NCBI GenBank assembly: GCA_965215885.1
Contig: CBDCEW010000099.1
Location: 1 to 64,000 of the forward strand
Length of the DNA: 64,000 nt
Direction of reading: 5' to 3'
From: Candidatus Moanibacter sp.
Lineage (GTDB): Bacteria > Verrucomicrobiota > Verrucomicrobiia > Opitutales > UBA2987
The position numbers and the translations under genes were made by a program. The notes below the pieces were generated by a model. It ran no database searches. It was not told the DNA's origin and worked only from the letters and a program-made list of their open reading frames with translations. Below, piece by piece: positions 47,551 through 63,625 of this stretch (positions are counted from its first letter, which is position 1; each line of letters starts with the position of its first letter).

Positions 47551-47588
47551 AAGCTTCCGGCTGAGAAGGAATCGAAGGAGGTTGCCCG

Positions 47589-47870
47589 CGGGTGCAGTAG
47601 CCATCCCACGGTTCCATACGGTGGACGATGGATGAAGGAGGGAAGCTCAACTGAGACTGTATTCGAGCTGGGGCTTGCAGTTGCCGGCAGGCACGGTGGG
47701 ATGGGGCGAAGCCCACGGTGGGAGAATATCCAGAAGAAAAGCCCACGGGTGCAGTAGCCATCCCACGGTTCCTCGCGGTGGACGATGGATGAAGGAGGGA
47801 AGCTCAGCTGAGACTGTATTCGAGCTGGGGACTGGTAGTATCCGGCAGGCACAGTGGGATGGGGCAAAGC
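47589..47870. repeat. REP/BIME-like tandem repeat, about 157-bp unit, 1.8 copies
   Basis: GGGTGCAGTAGCCATCCCACGGTTCC..CGGTGGACGATGGATGAAGGAGGGAAGCTCA occurs twice; same family as 13478-13672. Confidence 0.85.
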
Positions 47871-48552
47871 ATTTAATTTGGTAATTCCCCGTCCCGGCAT
47901 GCCGGGACGGGGTCGCTGACTTTCTCAAGCATTATCGTGCGCGGAGCGCCCGACCCACCCGTAGCAAGGATGCCCGCTAAAATACGCGAAAGTGGGATTT
48001 TCGCGGAGGACAGAAGGTTGGTGGCGGCGTAGTGCCGAATCACGAGAACGAGTGAGTCTGTGCCATGCCACCGTTACGCACCTCGGGTGATGGACAAAGG
48101 TGAAAAGCCGGACGAAGTATAGGAATTTATAGGGGAGAAATATGGTGAGTTTGGGAGAGAATTGGTGAATTTGCTGTATTATGAGAAAGGGTTTTGCGGA
48201 CGAATTTCTCAGTGAATGCTCAATCATCAAGAATTGGAGGAACAGAGATGACAAAGGATGAGATTAATGCCTACATATTGAGATCCCTTCTCGACAAGCC
48301 GCTGCAGAAACTGATTACCGACTTGAAAGAGGAGAACGCGGAAGCAGCCCTACTGGAACTGATTGAGATCGGATTACATCTCCGGCACTTCTCCCCTTGA
48401 TAGGGTGCCGACGGTCGGACTTTCCGATCAGAATTTCCCGTTTTCATTCCCGGCGAGCCGGGAATGAAAAGAGTTCAATAAAGTCCCACAGACTGCCAAG
48501 CGAGTTGATGACAGGGGTTGCCATGTAGAAGTGGTAGGTTTTTGATTCCTGG

Positions 48553-50082
48553 ATGAGTGGGCCGAAATGCGTGGAGATTGAGGCAACTCCTGATGCTTGG
48601 GAGCAGCGGCGACTGTTGAGGTCATGTGCGATCCTGCGAAGTCGATTTGAGCGTATTTTCAAGCTGCGGCGCCAGAAGCTGGAGAAACTGATGGCGCTCC
48701 GTGGAGAAACATCGTCGGCGCATTCAGTAGGACCTGAACAGGTGTTAGGCCGATTGGAATCTCTTCTCGACCGGAATGATACGCTGGAGGAGGCCGAAGA
48801 CTATATCAAAGGTCAGGTCGAGTGGATTGAACGGGAAGTAATTTCCGTAGAGAGTGAACTGCAGGGCGCGTTCGGGGCGGCGCATTCGGAGATTGCCCGT
48901 TATCGGGAATCGCGAAATCGAATCGAGGCGCTGGTTAACGGAAAACTGGTGGAACTTCATGCCCTTGGGTCGGATCTTCTGTCGGAGGAAGAGAGAAATA
49001 CACTGGAGAATCGTTTCCGGGAGGGATTGAAGTCGCTGGGCTGGCCACAAGATCCCATTGAGGAAAACGATTTTACTGGCTGGAAGGAGAAGAGCGAGCG
49101 GGCCGATGCGCTTTCCAAACTCGAAGGAGAGTTAGCGCGTCTTTGGTCCGAATTGGCTGATGGGGTTGCGAGAGACGATTCGAACGTGGCGGAACCTGCC
49201 CTGGAGCTAGGGAAGGCTAAAGCCGAATCAATCGAGAGTTTCTTGAAGGAGCACCCGGTAGAGAGGGTGAAAAGGGAATCTGCACACGATTGGGAGAAAC
49301 AGATTGGCGAGCTCTTTTCCAATATCGCGGCGAGAGGCGGGGAATCAGTTTTGGATGAGTTGATGCATGAAGCTGATAAAATCGGCCGGGAAGATGATAG
49401 CACTCGAGCGCGAATGCTCTATGAGAATCTGGTAATGGAAGCGAGCGCGAAACTGCGAGACTTGAAAGCGTTGAGGAAATTTGAGGAGAGACTGGGAGAA
49501 CTATGTGATTCGATGGAACATCTGCGAGGACGCCGGTCTGTTGAGGAGTTGGTCAATGAAATTGAGACGCTAACACAGCTCAAACGGCCGACATCCCTGG
49601 AGGAACTGGAAGTTCGGATCCAGGAAACGATAGAAAAAGAAGAAGCCGCTCAGGAAAGAGAGAGAAAGAGATATGCGATTCTTGAGTCGATTTTGGCTTT
49701 GGGCTACGAACCGCGAGAGGGATTGAAGACCGGGTTGGTGGAAGGCGGAAAATTGATTGTACGGAAGGCAGATGAAGAAGAGTATGGAGTAGAGATTGTG
49801 CTGAACGATGATTTGAGCAAAATACAGACGGCGATGGTGCGATTTGCAGAATCTGCTGAAATGACTCGGCAGCAGCGATTGAGAGATGTTGAAAGGGAGA
49901 CAGAGTGGTGCGAAGACCACGCTGACTTTCTCGGTAATCTTGAAGAGCGAGGATTCGAACCATCATTTCTGATGAAACTCGAACCGGGGGCGCATCCAGT
50001 CAAAGTTGTGGTTGAAGGGGAGGAAGGGAAGCAGAAGAGACGTGAAGATGAAGTACTTCGGAATAGGCAACTTCAGGAATGA
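48553..50082 (+). CDS. coiled-coil protein, first gene of the AAA/kinase/radical-SAM/FHA operon
   Basis: 509 aa, E/L/R-rich and helical, with a C-terminal alpha/beta region (LALGYE...YGVEI...TEWCED). Its stop overlaps the next start (ATGA). Confidence 0.8.
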   Translation: MSGPKCVEIEATPDAWEQRRLLRSCAILRSRFERIFKLRRQKLEKLMALRGETSSAHSVGPEQVLGRLESLLDRNDTLEEAEDYIKGQVEWIEREVISVESELQGAFGAAHSEIARYRESRNRIEALVNGKLVELHALGSDLLSEEERNTLENRFREGLKSLGWPQDPIEENDFTGWKEKSERADALSKLEGELARLWSELADGVARDDSNVAEPALELGKAKAESIESFLKEHPVERVKRESAHDWEKQIGELFSNIAARGGESVLDELMHEADKIGREDDSTRARMLYENLVMEASAKLRDLKALRKFEERLGELCDSMEHLRGRRSVEELVNEIETLTQLKRPTSLEELEVRIQETIEKEEAAQERERKRYAILESILALGYEPREGLKTGLVEGGKLIVRKADEEEYGVEIVLNDDLSKIQTAMVRFAESAEMTRQQRLRDVERETEWCEDHADFLGNLEERGFEPSFLMKLEPGAHPVKVVVEGEEGKQKRREDEVLRNRQLQE

Positions 50083-51959
50083 CGAGCAAGGAATTTGAAC
50101 AGAATGCAGCCACTCCGCGTTGGGTAAAGGATCTCTTCCGCTTCCTAAACGTAAAGGCACAGTTTATCCTCTCCGGTAATATTCGTGACCGGTGCTCTTT
50201 TCCTCTCGAAGGAGGAGGCGCACTTCCCCTCGAACTGCCCTCCTATCTCTCAGAGATTCTCAAATTGAGAGGTTACGATCGTTTTATTGTATTCGATAGT
50301 GTCGACGGGTTCTCTCCCATGGTACCTCGTGGTGAACAGGCGGAGAACACACACAAGTATTTTCAGGAGACTTTTTCACTGGAGTTCGACGAGCGCGGTC
50401 GGCTGGCATGTTCTCTGGAGAGGTCGCTAGAAGTTATCGAAGCTATTGTCGGTGAGCGAAATTCCCTGATTGGGATTCTAATAGATTATGCTTCGCGTTT
50501 GACAGTAAGGCAGGGAAATCTCTCAGAGTCGGAACATGAGTATTTCGCGCGTGTGCTCAAGTTGTCCCAGACGGCGCTACCCCATCCCACGGACAGGGTA
50601 AAGGAGGCGTTGTTCAACACGATATTCTGGTTGTGCGATCGCGAGAATGATTTGCCGGACTGGTTATCCCTCGATAATCCGAGAGTGCGGCAGCTGATTG
50701 TTCCGAGACCCGATCACATTGTAAGGCGAACTCTCATTACCAGTTTGAGCGCCTCTCTATCCGGATACGAAGATTGCACTTCGGAGCAAAAAGAAGTGTG
50801 CACGGATGACTTTGTGGATCAGACGGAAGGCATGATGTTATCCGAAGTTGTGGCAATCACACAGATGTGTAGAAGCGAGAATCTGCTTTTCAGTGAGGTG
50901 GGGGAAGCGGTGCGGCGCTACAAGCTCGGAGTTACGGAGGATCCATGGAAGAAGATTGATCGGAGAAAGATTGAAGACGGCGCGGAGTTCGTTGGGCGGA
51001 GAGTGAAAGGGCAGATTCAGGCGGTTACCAAATCGATGGATATCATTAAGCGTGCAGTCACAGGACTCTCCGGATCGCAGGCATCCAAGAAAGGCGGCCG
51101 GCCCCGAGGAGTGCTCTTTCTGGCAGGGCCGACAGGGGTAGGCAAGACGGAGTTGGCGAAGTCTCTCACAGAACTGCTTTTTGGTGATGAGACTGCCTAC
51201 ATACGCTTTGATATGAGCGAATTTTCAGCGGAGCACGCTGATCAACGTTTACTCGGAGCCCCTCCCGGATATGTCGGGTATGACGCGGGTGGCGAACTGA
51301 CCAATGCTATAAGGGAGAAGCCTTTTGCAGTGGTCCTCTTTGACGAAATTGAAAAGGCGCACCCGCGAATTCTGGACAAATTTCTCCAACTGCTCGACGA
51401 TGGAGTACTTACTTCAGGTCGGGGAGAGCGGGTCTACTTTTCGGAGGCGGTGATCATCTTTACTTCTAATCTGGGAATTTACAAAACCGATCCCGGTGGA
51501 CTTCGCACACCCAACGTGACGTCGGAGGATTCCTATGAAGCAGTGGCGGAGAAAATACGCGATGAGATTAATCGCTACTTTACGAGCGAACTCAACCGCC
51601 CCGAGATCCTCAACCGTATCGGTGAGAATATCGTAGTTTTCGATTTTATTCGGACGGAGGTAGCCGATCTCATATTCGAGAAAATGCTGAATAGCATTCT
51701 TGAACGCGTATTGGATGAGCAGAAAATGACGGTCGAAATACCCTCTCGATTTCTTAAAGAACTAAAAGCGCGATGTGTAGAAGATCTTTCCCATGGCGGT
51801 CGTGGAATAGGGAACCAGCTGGAAGCCTGGTTTATCAATCCCTTGGCCCGCACGCTTTTCGAAATGGAAGCCAGGGATGATTCGAAGGTCGAGGTAACAG
51901 AGTTTGGAGTGCGTGAGAATATTCCTTATCTCGCTCTAGCAGCCTGTCGGACTTTGTAA
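50079..51959 (+). CDS. AAA+ ATPase with a single ClpB-D2-type module and a degenerate N-terminal module
   Basis: Motifs GPTGVGKTELAK, RFDMSEF, LLGAPPGYVGY, FDEIEKAHP, FTSNLG, RPEILNRI and GGRGI. No D1 Walker A is present. Confidence 0.88.
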   Translation: MTSKEFEQNAATPRWVKDLFRFLNVKAQFILSGNIRDRCSFPLEGGGALPLELPSYLSEILKLRGYDRFIVFDSVDGFSPMVPRGEQAENTHKYFQETFSLEFDERGRLACSLERSLEVIEAIVGERNSLIGILIDYASRLTVRQGNLSESEHEYFARVLKLSQTALPHPTDRVKEALFNTIFWLCDRENDLPDWLSLDNPRVRQLIVPRPDHIVRRTLITSLSASLSGYEDCTSEQKEVCTDDFVDQTEGMMLSEVVAITQMCRSENLLFSEVGEAVRRYKLGVTEDPWKKIDRRKIEDGAEFVGRRVKGQIQAVTKSMDIIKRAVTGLSGSQASKKGGRPRGVLFLAGPTGVGKTELAKSLTELLFGDETAYIRFDMSEFSAEHADQRLLGAPPGYVGYDAGGELTNAIREKPFAVVLFDEIEKAHPRILDKFLQLLDDGVLTSGRGERVYFSEAVIIFTSNLGIYKTDPGGLRTPNVTSEDSYEAVAEKIRDEINRYFTSELNRPEILNRIGENIVVFDFIRTEVADLIFEKMLNSILERVLDEQKMTVEIPSRFLKELKARCVEDLSHGGRGIGNQLEAWFINPLARTLFEMEARDDSKVEVTEFGVRENIPYLALAACRTL

Positions 51960-52012
51960 TTCTTTCTAAAAGATCTCTCAAATTCATTCCGATCCCGGCT
52001 CGCCGGGACTAG
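51936..52012. mobile_element. 73-bp family B-like element inserted at CTAG in the ATPase 3' end
   Basis: CTAG at 51936-51939 and 52009-52012; left end GCAGCCTGTCGGACTT. Excision gives ...YLALEARK*. Confidence 0.7.
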
Positions 52013-52045
52013 AAGCAAGAAAATGAAACCGAACTAAAAATACCG

Positions 52046-54232
52046 ATGGCGGCAGAGGAGACGAAACTGGAGTCAGTTCTTAGGAGAACCGTAGGCTCGC
52101 AGGGCTCAAAGGGAGAAACTCTCCTGGAGAATGCGACCGCCGGGCAGGTCACGGTCATCGAGGATGACATACAGCAATACCGCAATGACTGCATTGAATA
52201 TCTCGAAAGGGACTTTGGGAAATACGTAATTCGGGAGCCGATGCCCGTGGCTTCAGCAGAGGCGGATCTGTTTCTCGCGAATGATCGCGATACTGGTGTG
52301 GAGGTCGTGATTAAGCATTATCGTTTTGGAGTGGTGCCCAAGGTGGAGATTGCACAGAAGATTCAAGGCCCAGGCTGCGATCACATCATTGGGCTATTGG
52401 AAACAGGCGAGAAAGGAGGGCGGGTATTTGAGGTCATCGAGTATGCTCCTTTCGGAACCCTGGAGAATCTTCTGGAAGACATCAAAAGGGAGGAGAGTCT
52501 TCAACGTGAGACATTAGGCGAAATTGCGGCTGCGATCAATTACCTGCATGGAATCGATATAATTCATCGCGATATCAAACCCTCAAATATCCTCCTACGT
52601 CGACGCGATCCTCTAAACCTGGTGCTGACCGATTTCGGTATTTCGAGTGAAACGCATCTCTCACTCCATTTGACCACGACAAACCGGACCATCACCTACA
52701 GTGCGCCGGAAGCGCTGGTTGGTGTAGTGGCCCAGGCTTCGGATTGGTGGAGCCTCGGAATCATTATTCTTGAAATGACATCCGGGCGTCATCCATTTGC
52801 GGATATGACGGAGACGGCGGTGAATTTTCACCTTGTTTCGAAACCGGTTCCGGTGCCGGAGAATCTACCGGAGGAGTGGCAACAACTAATCAAGGGATTA
52901 CTCACTCGTGACCAGTACAGACGCTGGGGATACCCGGAGATCCAGCGATGGTTGGACGGGGAGACAATAATACCCCTCGATTACGAGAGTGAGACGGAAG
53001 GGGGAGTTTCAACCGGAATTTCCACGAAGCCGTATCGATTCGAAGACTCAGAGTTTGTCGATCCGCAATCCTTAGCGGAAGCGTTCGCCAAGGATTGGAG
53101 GGAGGCGATACAGCACATCGAGCGGCGCTACGTTGAGAGTTGGTTGGCCAACGATCTGGGTGATCAGCAGAGAGCCAAGCAGTTGGGGGATCTCCTTGAG
53201 GATTCGGAACTTCACCGGGATTGTTACCTTTCGCTTGCGCTACTCATCCTCAATACAGATCTTCCGCTTGTATTTAAAGGCGAGGTGGTGTCGAGGGAGT
53301 GGATGGTAAGTAATGTCAGGGACTCCATTCGCATGCTGGAATCGACGTTTCCGGATTGGCATCGGAAATTAACCGGTGATTCATGGATCGCTGATTTGAG
53401 AGATCACCGTATCTCCGTTATCAATGAGCTCGAACCTCACTATGATTTGGTCAAGGAGAGCGGGCAGAGCCCGACTCGCCCACCAATTTCGATGGGGCGA
53501 AGCAAGAAAGTGCCGGCAATGGCGGTTTCTGAAATCGTAAACCAGTATATCCTAAACGAGCCTCAAGAGATTATTGAAGGCGCCGCGAAATTTCGTGAAG
53601 GATTTCACAAAGCCAGGCATCCGTATCTGGCAAAACTCCTCAAACAATCAGAGCTTAGACTCTATGAGGCTATTCTATTGTTGTGTGCGCCACGCGATCT
53701 CTATCTCACTCGCCGACAATCTTACTTTCGCGCTCTATCGCAGTATGGCTTGAGTTTGGATCTTGCGCGTGTTGAACAGCTACTTGATTGCATACCGGAA
53801 GAGGTCGTTGAGCAGGCCATATCCTTTCGTGAGAAGTTTGCCTATAGCAATAACGAGAGGCTGCAGGAGTGTCTGCGGGTGGAGGAACTATCACTGCCGG
53901 ACGCTATTGCACTTCTTACATGTGATCCCGAATATCTGGTAACAGAGGAACAATGTAAGGGGGAGGAACAAGAGAAGCTGGTAAAGGAACGATTCGAGAA
54001 GCTGAGATCTCGTGGGTGGCCGGTTGATCGCGAATATGTCAAAGCTCTTTTCCCCTTTGGGAAATCCGAAGTCGTGCAGGAGGCATTGAAATTCAGGCAA
54101 GATTACAGAAAGGCGCTGGATCCCAATCTGCACGCACTTCTCAAGAAGGGAGATCTTTCATATGCGGAGGCTTTTGCTTTGCTGGCCTCTCCCAGAGACC
54201 TCTACGTGACGAAACTCAGATTCCGGTTATGA
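52046..54232 (+). CDS. Hanks-type Ser/Thr protein kinase with three C-terminal helical repeats
   Basis: Motifs VIKHY, HRDIKPSNIL, TDFGIS, YSAPE and DWWSLG. Confidence 0.92.
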   Translation: MAAEETKLESVLRRTVGSQGSKGETLLENATAGQVTVIEDDIQQYRNDCIEYLERDFGKYVIREPMPVASAEADLFLANDRDTGVEVVIKHYRFGVVPKVEIAQKIQGPGCDHIIGLLETGEKGGRVFEVIEYAPFGTLENLLEDIKREESLQRETLGEIAAAINYLHGIDIIHRDIKPSNILLRRRDPLNLVLTDFGISSETHLSLHLTTTNRTITYSAPEALVGVVAQASDWWSLGIIILEMTSGRHPFADMTETAVNFHLVSKPVPVPENLPEEWQQLIKGLLTRDQYRRWGYPEIQRWLDGETIIPLDYESETEGGVSTGISTKPYRFEDSEFVDPQSLAEAFAKDWREAIQHIERRYVESWLANDLGDQQRAKQLGDLLEDSELHRDCYLSLALLILNTDLPLVFKGEVVSREWMVSNVRDSIRMLESTFPDWHRKLTGDSWIADLRDHRISVINELEPHYDLVKESGQSPTRPPISMGRSKKVPAMAVSEIVNQYILNEPQEIIEGAAKFREGFHKARHPYLAKLLKQSELRLYEAILLLCAPRDLYLTRRQSYFRALSQYGLSLDLARVEQLLDCIPEEVVEQAISFREKFAYSNNERLQECLRVEELSLPDAIALLTCDPEYLVTEEQCKGEEQEKLVKERFEKLRSRGWPVDREYVKALFPFGKSEVVQEALKFRQDYRKALDPNLHALLKKGDLSYAEAFALLASPRDLYVTKLRFRL

Positions 54233-54234
54233 CA

Positions 54235-54403
54235 CCAGGAACCTGTCGGACTCTGTCGTCGGATTGTTATGCAAGTGCCAAATCGCGTCCGACAGGCTCC
54301 TGGTAAGAAATCTGTCGGTAGGAACTTAGCCTTAACCTGCATTGGTCGCCTTGATATCTAAACCTCGGTATATTGCGAAAGCACAAGTCCGACAGATTCC
54401 TAA
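54235..54403. mobile_element. two abutting family B MITEs
   Basis: CCAGGAACCTGTCGGAC...GTCCGACAGGCTCCTGG and TAAGAAATCTGTCGG...AAGTCCGACAGATTCCTAA. Confidence 0.75.
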
Positions 54404-55245
54404 TGGAGATCCAAATAAACAAAGTCCACTTTCCTGTCACGACCCTAGGAGCCGCCCACCGCCAGTTGACCATTCGTTTCGGTTGTCCGGTTCTTTTGTC
54501 CTGCCCGCTGTTGATCGTGACCGGAGCGGATCCATTCCACTGGGTCATGTTCTGGGCCGTTTCGAAGTGCGAACGATCGGTCCCGAACGCGCACAGCAAC
54601 CGGGGACTCATGACCTCGCCGGCTCCGGGAATGCCACTCGGATATGGAAGGCGCGTGGGGATTTGGACACAAGGGTGTTCCATCGTGCGGTGTCCGGGTT
54701 GCGTAAGCCGGGATACGTGGGAAACGCACGCCGGTTCAGCAATTGAAGTCGACATGTTACTTGAGGGGATTTCAAAATGGTTGAGACAAGCGGACGGGGT
54801 AACAGTTTCCGGGGGGGAGCCTTTTGATCAACCGGAGGCCTTGAGTTTTCTACTTGGCAGGATTCGCGCCGAATGTTCAGGAGACATCCTCGTCTATTCT
54901 GGTTATTCGAAGGAGAGACTATTTACGAGATTTTCCCCCTTGGTAGGTAAAATCGACGTTCTCATCTCCGAACCCTACACTCACGATTGCAGTGATAACC
55001 TTTACCTGCGTGGTTCTGATAACCAGAAAATATCTTTCATAACCGACCTTGCTCGAAGTATCGATCCCGAGGGAATCAATTTCATGGAAAAACCTGACCG
55101 CCCTTCATTCGACGTCAGTTTTGATGGCGAGACACTTTGGTTGGCGGGAATTCCAAAACGCGGCGAATTGAAGCAATTCAAGGAAATCCTCCTGCGTAAC
55201 GGCTACAGCTGCGTGACATCTGAGAGTTTGATAGTGCGCGCCTAG
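54403..55245 (+). CDS. radical-SAM/4Fe-4S single-cluster protein (NrdG-like) with a 192-bp in-frame insertion
   Basis: Reads HFPVTTLG[64 aa]YGRRVGIWTQGCSIVRCPGC; further motifs GVTVSGGEPFDQ, YSGY and LRGSDNQ. Confidence 0.85.
   Translation: MEIQINKVHFPVTTLGAAHRQLTIRFGCPVLLSCPLLIVTGADPFHWVMFWAVSKCERSVPNAHSNRGLMTSPAPGMPLGYGRRVGIWTQGCSIVRCPGCVSRDTWETHAGSAIEVDMLLEGISKWLRQADGVTVSGGEPFDQPEALSFLLGRIRAECSGDILVYSGYSKERLFTRFSPLVGKIDVLISEPYTHDCSDNLYLRGSDNQKISFITDLARSIDPEGINFMEKPDRPSFDVSFDGETLWLAGIPKRGELKQFKEILLRNGYSCVTSESLIVRA
54445..54636 (-). mobile_element. internal IS110-family transposase fragment
   Basis: The minus strand reads GIPGAGEVMSPRLLCAFGTDRSHFETAQNMTQWNGSAPVTINSG...VNWRWAAP, matching the IS110 (Transposase_20) pattern PGxG....RF......G.AP....SG. 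Confidence 0.75.
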
Positions 55246-55342
55246 GAAGCTGTCGGATTTCGCTTAGCGACTTTTCCGAACGCTCCTGCATTCTGGGACC
55301 ATTCGTGGATCACGGCCGATTCCACTACCGACCTCTTCCTCG
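55242..55342. mobile_element. degenerate family B MITE at the radical-SAM stop codon
   Basis: Ends CTAGGAAGCTGTCGGA...CCGACCTCTTCCT. Confidence 0.55.
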
Positions 55343-55432
55343 TCACTCTAGGGGCCTTTCGGTATAGTCCGGCAGGTTCTCGTAGGATCGTTTTGCCTTC
55401 CTGCCGTTTCTTTGCCTAACTGGAATTCGAAA

Positions 55433-56071
55433 ATGGTGGAAACGTCCGATTCAAAGGTCAAGATATGTCCCAGCTGCGAAGGGGAGAATTTGTCTGTCGA
55501 CTTTTTCTGCAGGAGCTGTGGGGCGGACATTTCCTCCGTTGAGACTCAGGAAAAGGGGACCGAGTCGGAGAATAGAGAAAAGACGGATGACGAAGAGCAC
55601 CCTCATGAAGGGAAAGTATGTCCTGAATGCGGCAGCAGGGTTGAGGCGGTTTTCCCTCTTTGTTCCACATGCGGGCATGAATTTTCGGAGGAGGGTAATG
55701 AAATTCATGGGCCCGGGAGGGCGGTCGGCAAGGGGAGGTTAATCGAAGAAAGGGAGCCTCTTCAACTAGTAATCGGGGAAGACGTATTTCCGCTTGCCAA
55801 CGGTGATATTCTTGGCCGCGAAGGGACTGTGGCCGGGGATTACTTCAATACTTTTCCAACCGTTTCGCGGCAGCACCTCTTTGTAGCATTCGATGGCCGA
55901 AATTGGTCAATCTCGGTGCCGCGATCGGTAAGAAACCCTACTCTCCTCGATGGCAAAGAAATGACACGCGGTCAGATGCTCGTTCTGAGCGGGGAACATC
56001 GTGTTCAATTGTCGTCTCAATGTTCAGTAACACTGAGAGTATCTCATCACGGTTCTGGCGATGGCCCGTGA
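55433..56071 (+). CDS. double zinc-ribbon plus FHA domain protein
   Basis: CPSC..CRSC and CPEC..CSTC ribbons, followed by FHA motifs LGR, VSRQH and NPTLLDG. Confidence 0.88.
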   Translation: MVETSDSKVKICPSCEGENLSVDFFCRSCGADISSVETQEKGTESENREKTDDEEHPHEGKVCPECGSRVEAVFPLCSTCGHEFSEEGNEIHGPGRAVGKGRLIEEREPLQLVIGEDVFPLANGDILGREGTVAGDYFNTFPTVSRQHLFVAFDGRNWSISVPRSVRNPTLLDGKEMTRGQMLVLSGEHRVQLSSQCSVTLRVSHHGSGDGP

Positions 56072-56081
56072 GCTTGGGGTG

Positions 56082-56263
56082 CTAGCCCGGACATTTCACA
56101 AACCATCTGCTGCGACCACAGATGTCACTGCGGATCAAGGCCTTCTCTTCTTCGGCGACCTCAGAGGGTTCCAACACACTGTCGCCCGCCGGACTGCGAA
56201 AAGACCTTGATCCGCAGCAACCTACGCGGTCTCGCTACGATGTGTGTGAAATGTCCGGGCTAG
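56082..56263. mobile_element. MITE family A (best-conserved copy)
   Basis: Perfect 19-bp inverted ends CTAGCCCGGACATTTCACA / TGTGAAATGTCCGGGCTAG. Confidence 0.88.
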
Positions 56264-61954: not shown

Positions 61955-62137
61955 CCCGAACATTTCACAAACCTTCTGCTACGACCGCGTATCTCACCGC
62001 GTCTCATAGCCTTCCCTTGCCCGGCGACCTCAGAGGGTTCCAACACGCTTTTCCCGGCTTGCCGGGACTGCGGAAAGGCTTTGATACGCAGCAATCTACA
62101 CAATCTCGCTACGAAGTGTGTGAAGTGTCCGGGCTAG
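61951..62137. mobile_element. MITE family A at the ggt stop codon
   Basis: Ends GTAGCCCGAACATTTCACA...TGTGAAGTGTCCGGGCTAG. Confidence 0.85.
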
Positions 62138-63625
62138 GAATCTCCGCGGCAAGGCCGGCCGTCAAGGCTTTGCCCAAGCGTTCCACGATCATCCGACCAT
62201 GGCTTTTCCGGTAGGCTTCGCGCAAGGCGGGACCGGCCCGCTGTTCGCGCAGATGGCGCTCGTCTCTGTAGAGATTGTGGATCTGCCGCACCACCCAGCC
62301 GGCCAGCTTCGGACTTATCCCGAGTCCGAAACTGGCTTCTAGTTCTCCAGCGACATTTTACCCCACGGCCTGTGTGCCAGTCGTAGAGCACCTCGCCGCC
62401 GGGTCGCCCGTAGACCCACAGGTATCCTTTCCTGCAGCCCTCTTTCTTGCCTGCGTCCGGATCCAGGTAGCGGATGGGCGTTTCGTCTGGATGTAACCGC
62501 CCTCGAACAATTGTAAGCACATGTAGTTGTAGATGGGTTTTAGCCATTGCGCTACCTGGTGGATCCAATCGAGCATGCTCTGGCGCGCCACCCTTACTCC
62601 GTAGCGTTCCCGGAAAATCTTCTCCTGCCGATACAACGGCAGGTGATCGACGTATTTGCTCAGTAATATGTGCACCAAAAGTCCAGGGATCCCTTTTTCA
62701 ATCAGCCGCGATGGTAATGGCGCCAGCACGGGAGGTTCCTGGGGCTTTTCGCGAGATACATATTTGCGCCGTATATAGCGCCGCCTGATAAATCGGGCCG
62801 GGAGCAAATCTAACTCTTCAGTGACTTCCTCACCGATCAACCGCCACTTTTGCGGTTCAACCTTCACCGCTTCGGGTTCGATTACGATCTCTTCGACTTC
62901 CAGGTGCTCGGGCAGACGCTGTCGCCTCGCCCCAGCTCCTTTGCGCGCCTTCGGCTCGGGTGGTGGCTCTGCCGTTTGCTCAGCGGGTTTGTTTTCCTCG
63001 GCCTGCTCCAGCCCGGCCAGGAGCAATTCCAGCTGTCCCGGATCGATCCGCTCGCTTTGGTTGCCTCCAAAGTAGCGCTTAATGAGCCAGCCGATCTTCT
63101 GACGTAAAAGCCGATTCTCCTCTCGGAGTTGCTCCAGCTCTGTTTGCAAAACCTCGACTTCAGGCATGAAAACAATACTAAACTAACGGTAATAAGAAAA
63201 GCAATACTTTTTCAAAAAAATCACTTTTTTTGACCTAACGCTGATACCAGGGCCGCATCTTCCCCTCCCTCAGGTCGATCCCGTTCAAGAGCATGCTCAA
63301 CGCTTCAGGGCGCAATGGAAGCTTCTGATCTTTCAAGTCCACTCCCTGCGGCCAGCTGAACCGACCCTTCTCTAATCGCTTTGCGAAAACCCATAACCCC
63401 GTGCCGTCCCAATACAGAATCTTGACCCGGTCCCGGCTGCGATTGCAGAAGACAAAGACCGCTCCGCTCAACGGGTCTTCCTTGAGCTGATTGGCCGCCA
63501 GGGCGTAGAGACCATTAAAACTCTTTCGCAGATCCGTTACTCCCACGGCCAGGAAAACCTTCATCGTTCCCGGTAAGCTCAGCATCCCGATTCCCTCAAC
63601 GCCTTCACCAGACTCGCCACTGTAA
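62138..63625 (-). mobile_element. IS66-family element remnant (tnpA tail, tnpB, broken tnpC)
   Basis: tnpC motifs RRQRLPEHL, KYVDHLPLYRQ, DETP and GYLWVY, with frameshifts and deletions and no C-terminus. Only VASLVKALRESGC* of tnpA remains. Confidence 0.88.
63235..63585 (-). CDS. tnpB: IS66 accessory protein TnpB
   Basis: Motifs TDLRKSFNGL, FVFCNRSRDRVKILYWDGTG and KRLEKGRFSWP. Confidence 0.95.
   Translation of the reverse strand: MLSLPGTMKVFLAVGVTDLRKSFNGLYALAANQLKEDPLSGAVFVFCNRSRDRVKILYWDGTGLWVFAKRLEKGRFSWPQGVDLKDQKLPLRPEALSMLLNGIDLREGKMRPWYQR

Follow-up and report, generated by a model that had tools for sequence, protein, structure and literature searches.

An apparently undescribed gene cassette combining a Clp-type ATPase, a coiled-coil protein, a Ser/Thr kinase and an activase-type radical-SAM enzyme in Candidatus Moanibacter sp.

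Gene content of the locus and its relatives

The window analysed in this study was a stretch of 64,000 nucleotides from Candidatus Moanibacter sp. (GCA_965215885.1), corresponding to positions 1-64,000 of CBDCEW010000099.1 in an assembly that is 90% complete. An earlier note on this DNA described five co-oriented genes downstream of ftsH at positions 48553-56071. All five open reading frames (ORFs) were confirmed on the plus strand with open frames, and the ATGA overlap of the first two genes, which encode a coiled-coil protein and an AAA+ ATPase, was also found in the sequence. They are followed by genes for a Ser/Thr kinase, a radical S-adenosylmethionine (radical-SAM) enzyme and a zinc-ribbon protein with an FHA domain (Table 1). 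The cassette is real, conserved and apparently undescribed.

Relatives were collected through the ATPase. The genome search gave 9 full-length relatives among 80 loci, and the remaining 71, which held ClpB/C proteins matching in the second AAA+ module (D2) only, were dropped. The metagenome loci were the best 80 of 485 matches and were biased to close relatives. Nine plasmid records (2 of them fetched) and one IMG/VR viral contig were added. After collapse at 90% identity, 69 loci remained besides the window, 37 of them with at least 7.5 kb downstream. Among these 37 loci, the coiled-coil gene was present in 34, the kinase gene in 34 and the radical-SAM gene in 32. The genes travel together across phyla. 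Locus L085 carried the same five genes in identical order, with junctions of -4, +7, -11 and -4 nt. At other loci, the order was shuffled and the membership was kept, and some loci added a PP2C phosphatase gene. In one genome (G685), the cassette lay on two contigs, the ATPase and coiled-coil genes on one and the radical-SAM and kinase genes on the other. The common core consisted of four genes, encoding a Clp ATPase with a pseudo-ATPase first module (D1), a coiled-coil protein starting with MSGPK, an orphan activase-type radical-SAM enzyme and a Ser/Thr kinase. In rumen or gut Clostridia (L004, L006 and L007), the ATPase was present but the rest of the core was missing, and in L006 and L007 it was followed by a conserved unknown protein of ~247 aa.

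Two forms of the cassette were observed. In the helicase form (34/69 loci, one of which, L100, had only a fragment beside the locus), the kinase was a fusion of 2,100 aa that ended in DUF4011, a superfamily 1 (SF1) helicase and a Vsr-like nuclease (MTES_1575). In the form seen in the window, a free zinc-ribbon-FHA gene was present (9 loci, 8 by profile and L008 by Pfam), and PP2C was optional (6/69 loci). The helicase fusion and the FHA gene never occurred together among the 69 loci. In a quick tree, all 31 included helicase-form ATPases fell in one branch (SH-aLRT, a Shimodaira-Hasegawa-like approximate likelihood ratio test, 100) that held no FHA-form row, and the window lay outside it.

The distribution was patchy. 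The cassette was carried by 12/301 Pseudomonas genomes (seed genome included), always in the four-gene version and at several unrelated sites. In the phylum of the window, 1/300 sampled genomes gave a partial match, and no convincing coiled-coil match was obtained in 100 relatives. A phage collection gave no match, IMG/VR gave the one contig, and only the D2 of ClpK matched in an E. coli search. Patchy presence and unrelated sites together fit an accessory, mobile cassette.

Table 1. Positions of the cassette genes, insertions and repeats in the window
Feature	Position	Strand	Remark
Coiled-coil protein	48553..50082	+	509 aa; no known family
Two-tier Clp/Hsp100-type AAA+ ATPase	50079..51959	+	626 aa; AAA_2 1.5e-45 (Pfam)
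Short multicopy repeat	51940..52033		overlaps ATPase stop, fills ATPase/kinase junction
Hanks-type Ser/Thr kinase	52046..54232	+	728 aa; Pkinase 2e-37 (Pfam)
Multicopy repeat pieces	54234..54403		kinase/radical-SAM gap
Short radical-SAM enzyme, PFL-AE/NrdG activase type	54403..55245	+	Fer4_12 2.6e-23 (Pfam)
192-nt in-frame insertion (64 residues) in radical-SAM gene	54445..54636	-	internal IS110 transposase piece
3-nt insertion in radical-SAM gene	54685..54687	+	Cx3Cx2C to Cx4Cx2C
Short multicopy repeat	55239..55349		radical-SAM/FHA gap
Double zinc ribbon + FHA protein	55433..56071	+	DZR 2.8e-8, FHA 0.0086 (Pfam)
High-copy short element, 66-nt inverted arms	56082..56263		immediately downstream of cassette

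The other junctions had been described as filled mainly by miniature inverted-repeat transposable elements. Multicopy repeats did fill them, but that name for the repeats was only plausible. In the three junctions and the downstream gap, the repeats had ~7-56 (ATPase/kinase junction at most 56), 15-16 and ~200 overlapping matches in the assembly, which is abundant in such short elements and in insertion sequence (IS) copies. The zinc-ribbon/FHA ORF was open from TTG 55412, and ATG 55433 is its likely start. With a G+C content of 51% against 53% for the genome, the cassette was no compositional outlier. Promoter and terminator scans stayed at chance level. RNA-library contigs of one run (X6) aligned free of mismatches to portions of the first three genes, with DNA carry-over uncontrolled.

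Immediately 5' of the cassette, at 48248-48400, there was an ORF of 50 codons whose ribosome site (GGAGG) is good, and no relative of it was found in the genome or the fetched loci. Tandem multicopy repeats with 50-70 overlapping matches lay at 47584-47976, between ftsH and the cassette. Near the end of the window, at 62134-63585, IS66-like transposase genes were recognised from their translations.

Domains and motifs of the cassette proteins

The ATPase had been labelled as ClpB-D2. This understated the protein, which is a two-tier Clp ATPase with a pseudo-ATPase D1 and an intact D2. The structural model had a pLDDT score (predicted local distance difference test) of 91, and its full length aligned to D1+D2 of ClpC/ClpB (Z 30.8, root-mean-square deviation (rmsd) 6.8, 511 residues), with two stacked AAA+ modules and a Clp-type D2. 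The Walker A and B motifs, GYVG pore loop, sensor 1, Arg finger and sensor 2 of D2 were invariant in 61/61 ATPases. In the case of D1, SGNxRD replaced GxxGxGKT and D-F/Y-A replaced DE. Residues G33, N34 and D37 of D1 were invariant in 61/61 sequences, and GK[TS] occurred within the first 290 aa in only 2/61. These sequences suggested that D1 is probably dead as an ATPase, and the conserved module perhaps serves as a binding site. A PDB sequence search with a D1 profile gave nothing.

Unlike ClpB, ClpC and ClpV with their Clp_N domain, and unlike ClpB and ClpC with their middle coiled coil, the ATPase had neither an N-domain nor a middle domain. There was no Clp_N match, and model residues 8-625 aligned to residues 181-808 of the reference chain. 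The IGF-type ClpP docking loop of ClpA and ClpC was found in 0/61 ATPases, so coupling to ClpP is unlikely; a family-specific hairpin stood in place of this loop. The ATPase scored far under all NCBIfam cut-offs. Identity across the relatives was 34-63%. Complex prediction of ATPase residues 10-520 with the coiled-coil protein gave a score of 0.00 and no verdict.

The coiled-coil protein had no match in Pfam, NCBIfam, PADLOC or PDB. Its family comprised 1,832 clusters (50% identity) at E<=0.001, and only unnamed clusters of the ESM Atlas matched it. The MSGPK N-terminus was present in 143/161 proteins, and G384, Y385, C453 and G479 were invariant in 148/148 sequences. The model (pLDDT 91, predicted template modelling score 0.84) consisted mostly of long helices, and an N-terminal strand (residues 5-11) and ~370-490 (C-terminal ~110 aa) were predicted to form a single alpha/beta domain. 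KA1 domains were among its best structural matches, at borderline scores that fall within the range of common arrangements (Chk1 KA1, Z 8.2, rmsd 2.8, 88 residues; several other KA1 domains, Z 6.7-7.7). Foldseek of the model returned no match at E<=0.001. Covariation among the 148 sequences was too weak to place G384 relative to C453.

The proposed pair of a Hanks-type kinase and an FHA reader was consistent with our results. In the kinase, HRDIKPSN, DFG and APE were intact, and a helical middle domain at ~338-455 was conserved. The GR and SRxH motifs for binding phosphothreonine (pThr) were present in the FHA domain. Pfam confirmed the domains, with an FHA score below the cut-off. The C-terminus of the window kinase carried three 51-aa repeats, no membrane segment was predicted, and a search of the ESM Atlas with this tail gave nothing. 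Among window-form kinases, the kinase and helical middle domains were common and the tails varied (Sel1, PQQ propeller, FGE-sulfatase, membrane segments); 7/11 long non-helicase kinases had membrane segments. As the earlier note had stated for a phosphatase, no PP2C was found among the five genes, and relatives add one at 6 of the 69 loci. The assembly held one PP2C on another contig with housekeeping-looking surroundings.

The radical-SAM enzyme resembled the activases of glycyl-radical enzymes, PFL-AE (PflA) and NrdG. It shared Cx3Cx2C (60/61 motifs found), GGE (42/42) and a short barrel with them, its closest solved structure was PFL-AE (2.3e-8), and the NrdG model matched it at 1.3e-23. 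However, the window allele with its insertion reached 83.6 bits against a TIGR02491 cut-off of 126.1 and stayed below both curated cut-offs. The Asp/Asn of the activase motif [D/N]GxGxR binds the glycyl loop. In the cassette enzyme, the motif was LGxGxR, with Leu in 42/42. The claim that a glycyl-radical partner is missing was extended to the whole 90% complete assembly, in which neither a glycyl-radical enzyme nor NrdD was found. A Gly_radical domain was found in 0/10 carrier genomes searched, and NrdD in 1/6; the carriers included five single-contig Pseudomonas assemblies, and others were incomplete. Unlike the known activases, the cassette enzyme had no glycyl-radical enzyme as a neighbour, and most carrier genomes had none either. 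Many of the carriers are aerobes.

The assembled radical-SAM gene starts at ATG 54403, as judged by alignment to relatives, and not at TTG 54373. It contained two in-frame insertions of 192 nt and 3 nt, which the earlier note did not mention, and the uninterrupted product would be ~215 aa. The 192-nt insert was identical, reversed, to an internal stretch of a transposase gene present at 11 other sites of the assembly. This parent transposase was IS110 by Pfam, and the junction of the insert could slide by 2 nt. The 3-nt insertion gave the assembled allele Cx4Cx2C. Contigs of three public runs (two studies) skipped exactly the 192 nt, and the 3-nt insertion was absent in two of these three runs. 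Apart from the insertions, run X1, which may be the source sample, was identical to the window over its two long contigs. An intact version of the radical-SAM gene is therefore present within the same species or population. The assembled allele is probably crippled. It may be a true mutant, or it may have arisen in assembly; contigs drop rare variants and cannot decide between the two. The IS110 piece comes either from off-target recombination or from a chimeric assembly. It interrupts the radical-SAM gene at a CT dinucleotide, and its left junction shows slight homeology. Its ends and those of a whole IS110 element (C100:158800-160510) both read AG...CT. In practice, the in-frame IS110 fragment and the extra codon, both missing from public contigs, form a trap.

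Comparison with known systems

No PADLOC, Pfam or NCBIfam system fitted the five-gene set, in agreement with the earlier statement that it has no named match. No description of the set was found in searches of the open literature; subscription papers lay outside the search, and supplementary candidate tables could list the cassette. It was likewise not described in the available text of PMC7159879, PMC10853773, PMC11237479, PMC11090510, PMC10267522, 10.1101/2022.06.16.496414 and 10.1101/2025.09.30.679545. The gene set fits none of the named systems compared, and the function given below is inferred. Its switch resembles the TerY-P and type VI secretion system (T6SS) phosphorylation modules, its motor resembles Clp unfoldases and, in one form, its effector resembles Hhe, but each of these has a defining feature that the cassette lacks.

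The T6SS threonine-phosphorylation module consists of PpkA, PppA, Fha1 and ClpV and is not known to have a radical-SAM enzyme. The cassette was similar in having a kinase, PP2C, FHA and a Clp ATPase at one locus. However, the sheath gene VipB was not found in the 90% complete assembly, and the ATPase had no N-domain. The TerY-P triad (vWA, PP2C and a kinase with a zinc ribbon or OB fold) has a similar kinase/PP2C/zinc-ribbon switch, and stand-alone anti-phage versions of it are described in the available text of PMC11090510. Unlike TerY-P, the cassette had no vWA in the five genes or the examined loci and no PP2C among the five genes, and it added a Clp ATPase, a radical-SAM enzyme, FHA and a coiled-coil protein. 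In the case of Hhe (DUF4011-helicase-Vsr), the helicase-form kinase had the same domains, and its tail matched PADLOC Hhe (8.9e-65) and PDC-S37 (4.8e-148). According to the available text of 10.1101/2022.06.16.496414, hhe is active against phages. However, Hhe is a single gene, and the window kinase had no DUF4011, SF1 helicase or Vsr nuclease. A ClpB-D2-like stretch of the ATPase matched Dodola DolB (1.4e-17) and PADLOC PDC-M37B (4.5e-29), but the matches spanned the D2 core only, and no DolA or PDC-M37A match was found among the five genes.

A radical-SAM enzyme within a defence or conflict operon is reported, in the available texts, for Ophion (10.1101/2025.09.30.679545) and for FtsH-type vWA-MoxR ternary systems (PMC7159879). 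Ophion (radical SAM, PHP, phosphoribosyltransferase) was rejected as the cassette had no PHP or phosphoribosyltransferase, and the ternary systems were rejected as the partners differ and no vWA or MoxR was present. PspA-linked tandem AAA+ proteins were rejected as their partners differ; 'radical' and 'FHA' do not occur in the available main text of the phage shock protein paper.

Several genes of other kinds were observed around the relatives. A pair of RES-domain genes lay upstream of the cassette in L186 and L190. Locus L009 had a NADAR (DarT1-associated) gene upstream. Window-form cassettes were found beside a GAP1-N2 gene (L099:4996-6708) and a TerB gene (L098:3476-4621), which are parts of other conflict systems. 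At L124:1083-4393, two more radical-SAM genes and a gene for a peptidoglycan-binding protein lay directly upstream.

Possible functions and alternatives

We lean towards the view that the five genes form a mobile, patchy, kinase-gated conflict cassette, which is probably anti-phage or anti-plasmid. This was based on the co-occurrence, the shuffled order with constant membership, the patchiness, the Hhe-like tail, the variable kinase tails and the absence of a glycyl-radical partner. The earlier note had proposed a phosphorylation-gated remodelling or modification module, possibly of conflict, defence or stress. Co-occurrence, PP2C in relatives, intact motifs, the missing partner, the lack of a named match and the Hhe-like nuclease of the sister form agreed with it, but the enrichment in defence islands that it suggested looking for did not appear. 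In a controlled test, 94/172 flank proteins (syntenic duplicates dropped) were compared with 140/142 proteins from arbitrary regions of six of the same genomes. PADLOC matches were 10/94 in the flanks and 10/140 in the control, a small sample. Convincing full-length matches were 2 in the flanks and 5 in the control, where the matches included Gabija, a retron reverse transcriptase and Avs3b. The two convincing flank matches were TIR/ThsB-like genes of two Pseudomonas genomes (L184:10432-11382 and L188:8633-9583), each lying directly upstream of the cassette. The helicase-form flanks (31 loci, 115 proteins) had 10 PADLOC matches, ~4 of them convincing, with no control.

The lack of enrichment weighs against a conflict role, and so do several other results. 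Most Pseudomonas flanks were metabolic genes, and the window form had no recognisable toxic or nuclease domain. The ATPase is strongly conserved (34-63% identity), unlike fast-evolving effectors. Four clostridial loci had the ATPase alone, and the coiled-coil gene was not found in those genomes. The invariant Gly-Tyr sits at the end of a helix in the structural model, where its role may be structural only. Since there was no island enrichment, defence is argued from the sister form, whose effector is Hhe-like, from the swapping of kinase tails and from the patchy spread.

What was observed is the core with its two forms and the motifs; all interactions in a conflict cassette are proposals. The variable tail of the kinase would sense a trigger, and the kinase would write pThr. 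The zinc-ribbon-FHA protein would read pThr, and PP2C, where present, would erase it. A hexamer of the ATPase, powered by D2 alone and uncoupled from ClpP, might pull on its most constant partner, the coiled-coil protein, or else on a complex kept shut by this protein. The radical-SAM enzyme might then abstract a hydrogen from a cassette protein and cause a one-way covalent change. In the helicase form, the output would be the fused helicase-nuclease; in the form of the window, it would be an unlinked effector or the coiled-coil protein once released. More speculatively, the cassette could represent a new class of immune switch, although we consider this unlikely. In such a switch, a phospho-gated Clp ring would hand a dedicated protein over to a radical-SAM enzyme of the activase type, and a protein radical or backbone cut would be the irreversible trigger, in aerobes and without a glycyl-radical enzyme. 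The effectors (Hhe-like nuclease, sensor tails) would be plugged onto the kinase.

Stress or DNA-damage signalling with protein remodelling is a tentative alternative to a conflict role, and we give it a minor share of the probability. Oxidative or envelope stress would be sensed by the kinase, the radical-SAM cluster would be a redox or oxygen sensor or a repair enzyme, the ATPase would remodel a coiled-coil scaffold, and the helicase-nuclease would be a repair add-on. The lack of island enrichment, the high sequence conservation, the membrane segments of the long non-helicase kinases and flanking SbcCD-like, ScpB, Y-family polymerase and SRAP genes are consistent with this. However, the very patchy presence at several unrelated insertion sites, the fusion to an Hhe-like effector and the rapid swapping of kinase tails point away from it.

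It is rather improbable that the coiled-coil protein represents a new kind of radical enzyme or suicide effector in its own right. In that case, once the ATPase has exposed the site, the activase would put a glycyl radical on G384 or on the SGPK tail at the N-terminus, with C453 as a relay or with chain cleavage by oxygen. The similarity to PFL-AE, the invariant Gly-Tyr and Cys, the frequent MSGPK and the carriers without an ordinary glycyl-radical partner favour it. However, Leu replaces the Asp/Asn of activases, an RVxG[YFW]-type motif was not found in the coiled-coil proteins, and the model gave no readable Gly-Cys distance.

Decay of the window copy of a cassette that is real elsewhere, with junctions split by repeats, a disrupted radical-SAM gene and a lost PP2C, is very improbable; it is suggested by the two insertions and by repeats in three junctions, which in L085 are tight, but the public contigs are nearly identical apart from the skipped insertions, all five frames are open, and PP2C is also absent at L085 and L098.

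An activase-type radical-SAM enzyme, for which one job and one kind of partner are known, is kept here in genomes without that partner. The unfoldase encoded next to it has a first ring that is probably dead yet conserved. The coiled-coil protein represents a large family without any assigned function. As the intact four-gene cassette is present in culturable Pseudomonas, the question is directly testable.

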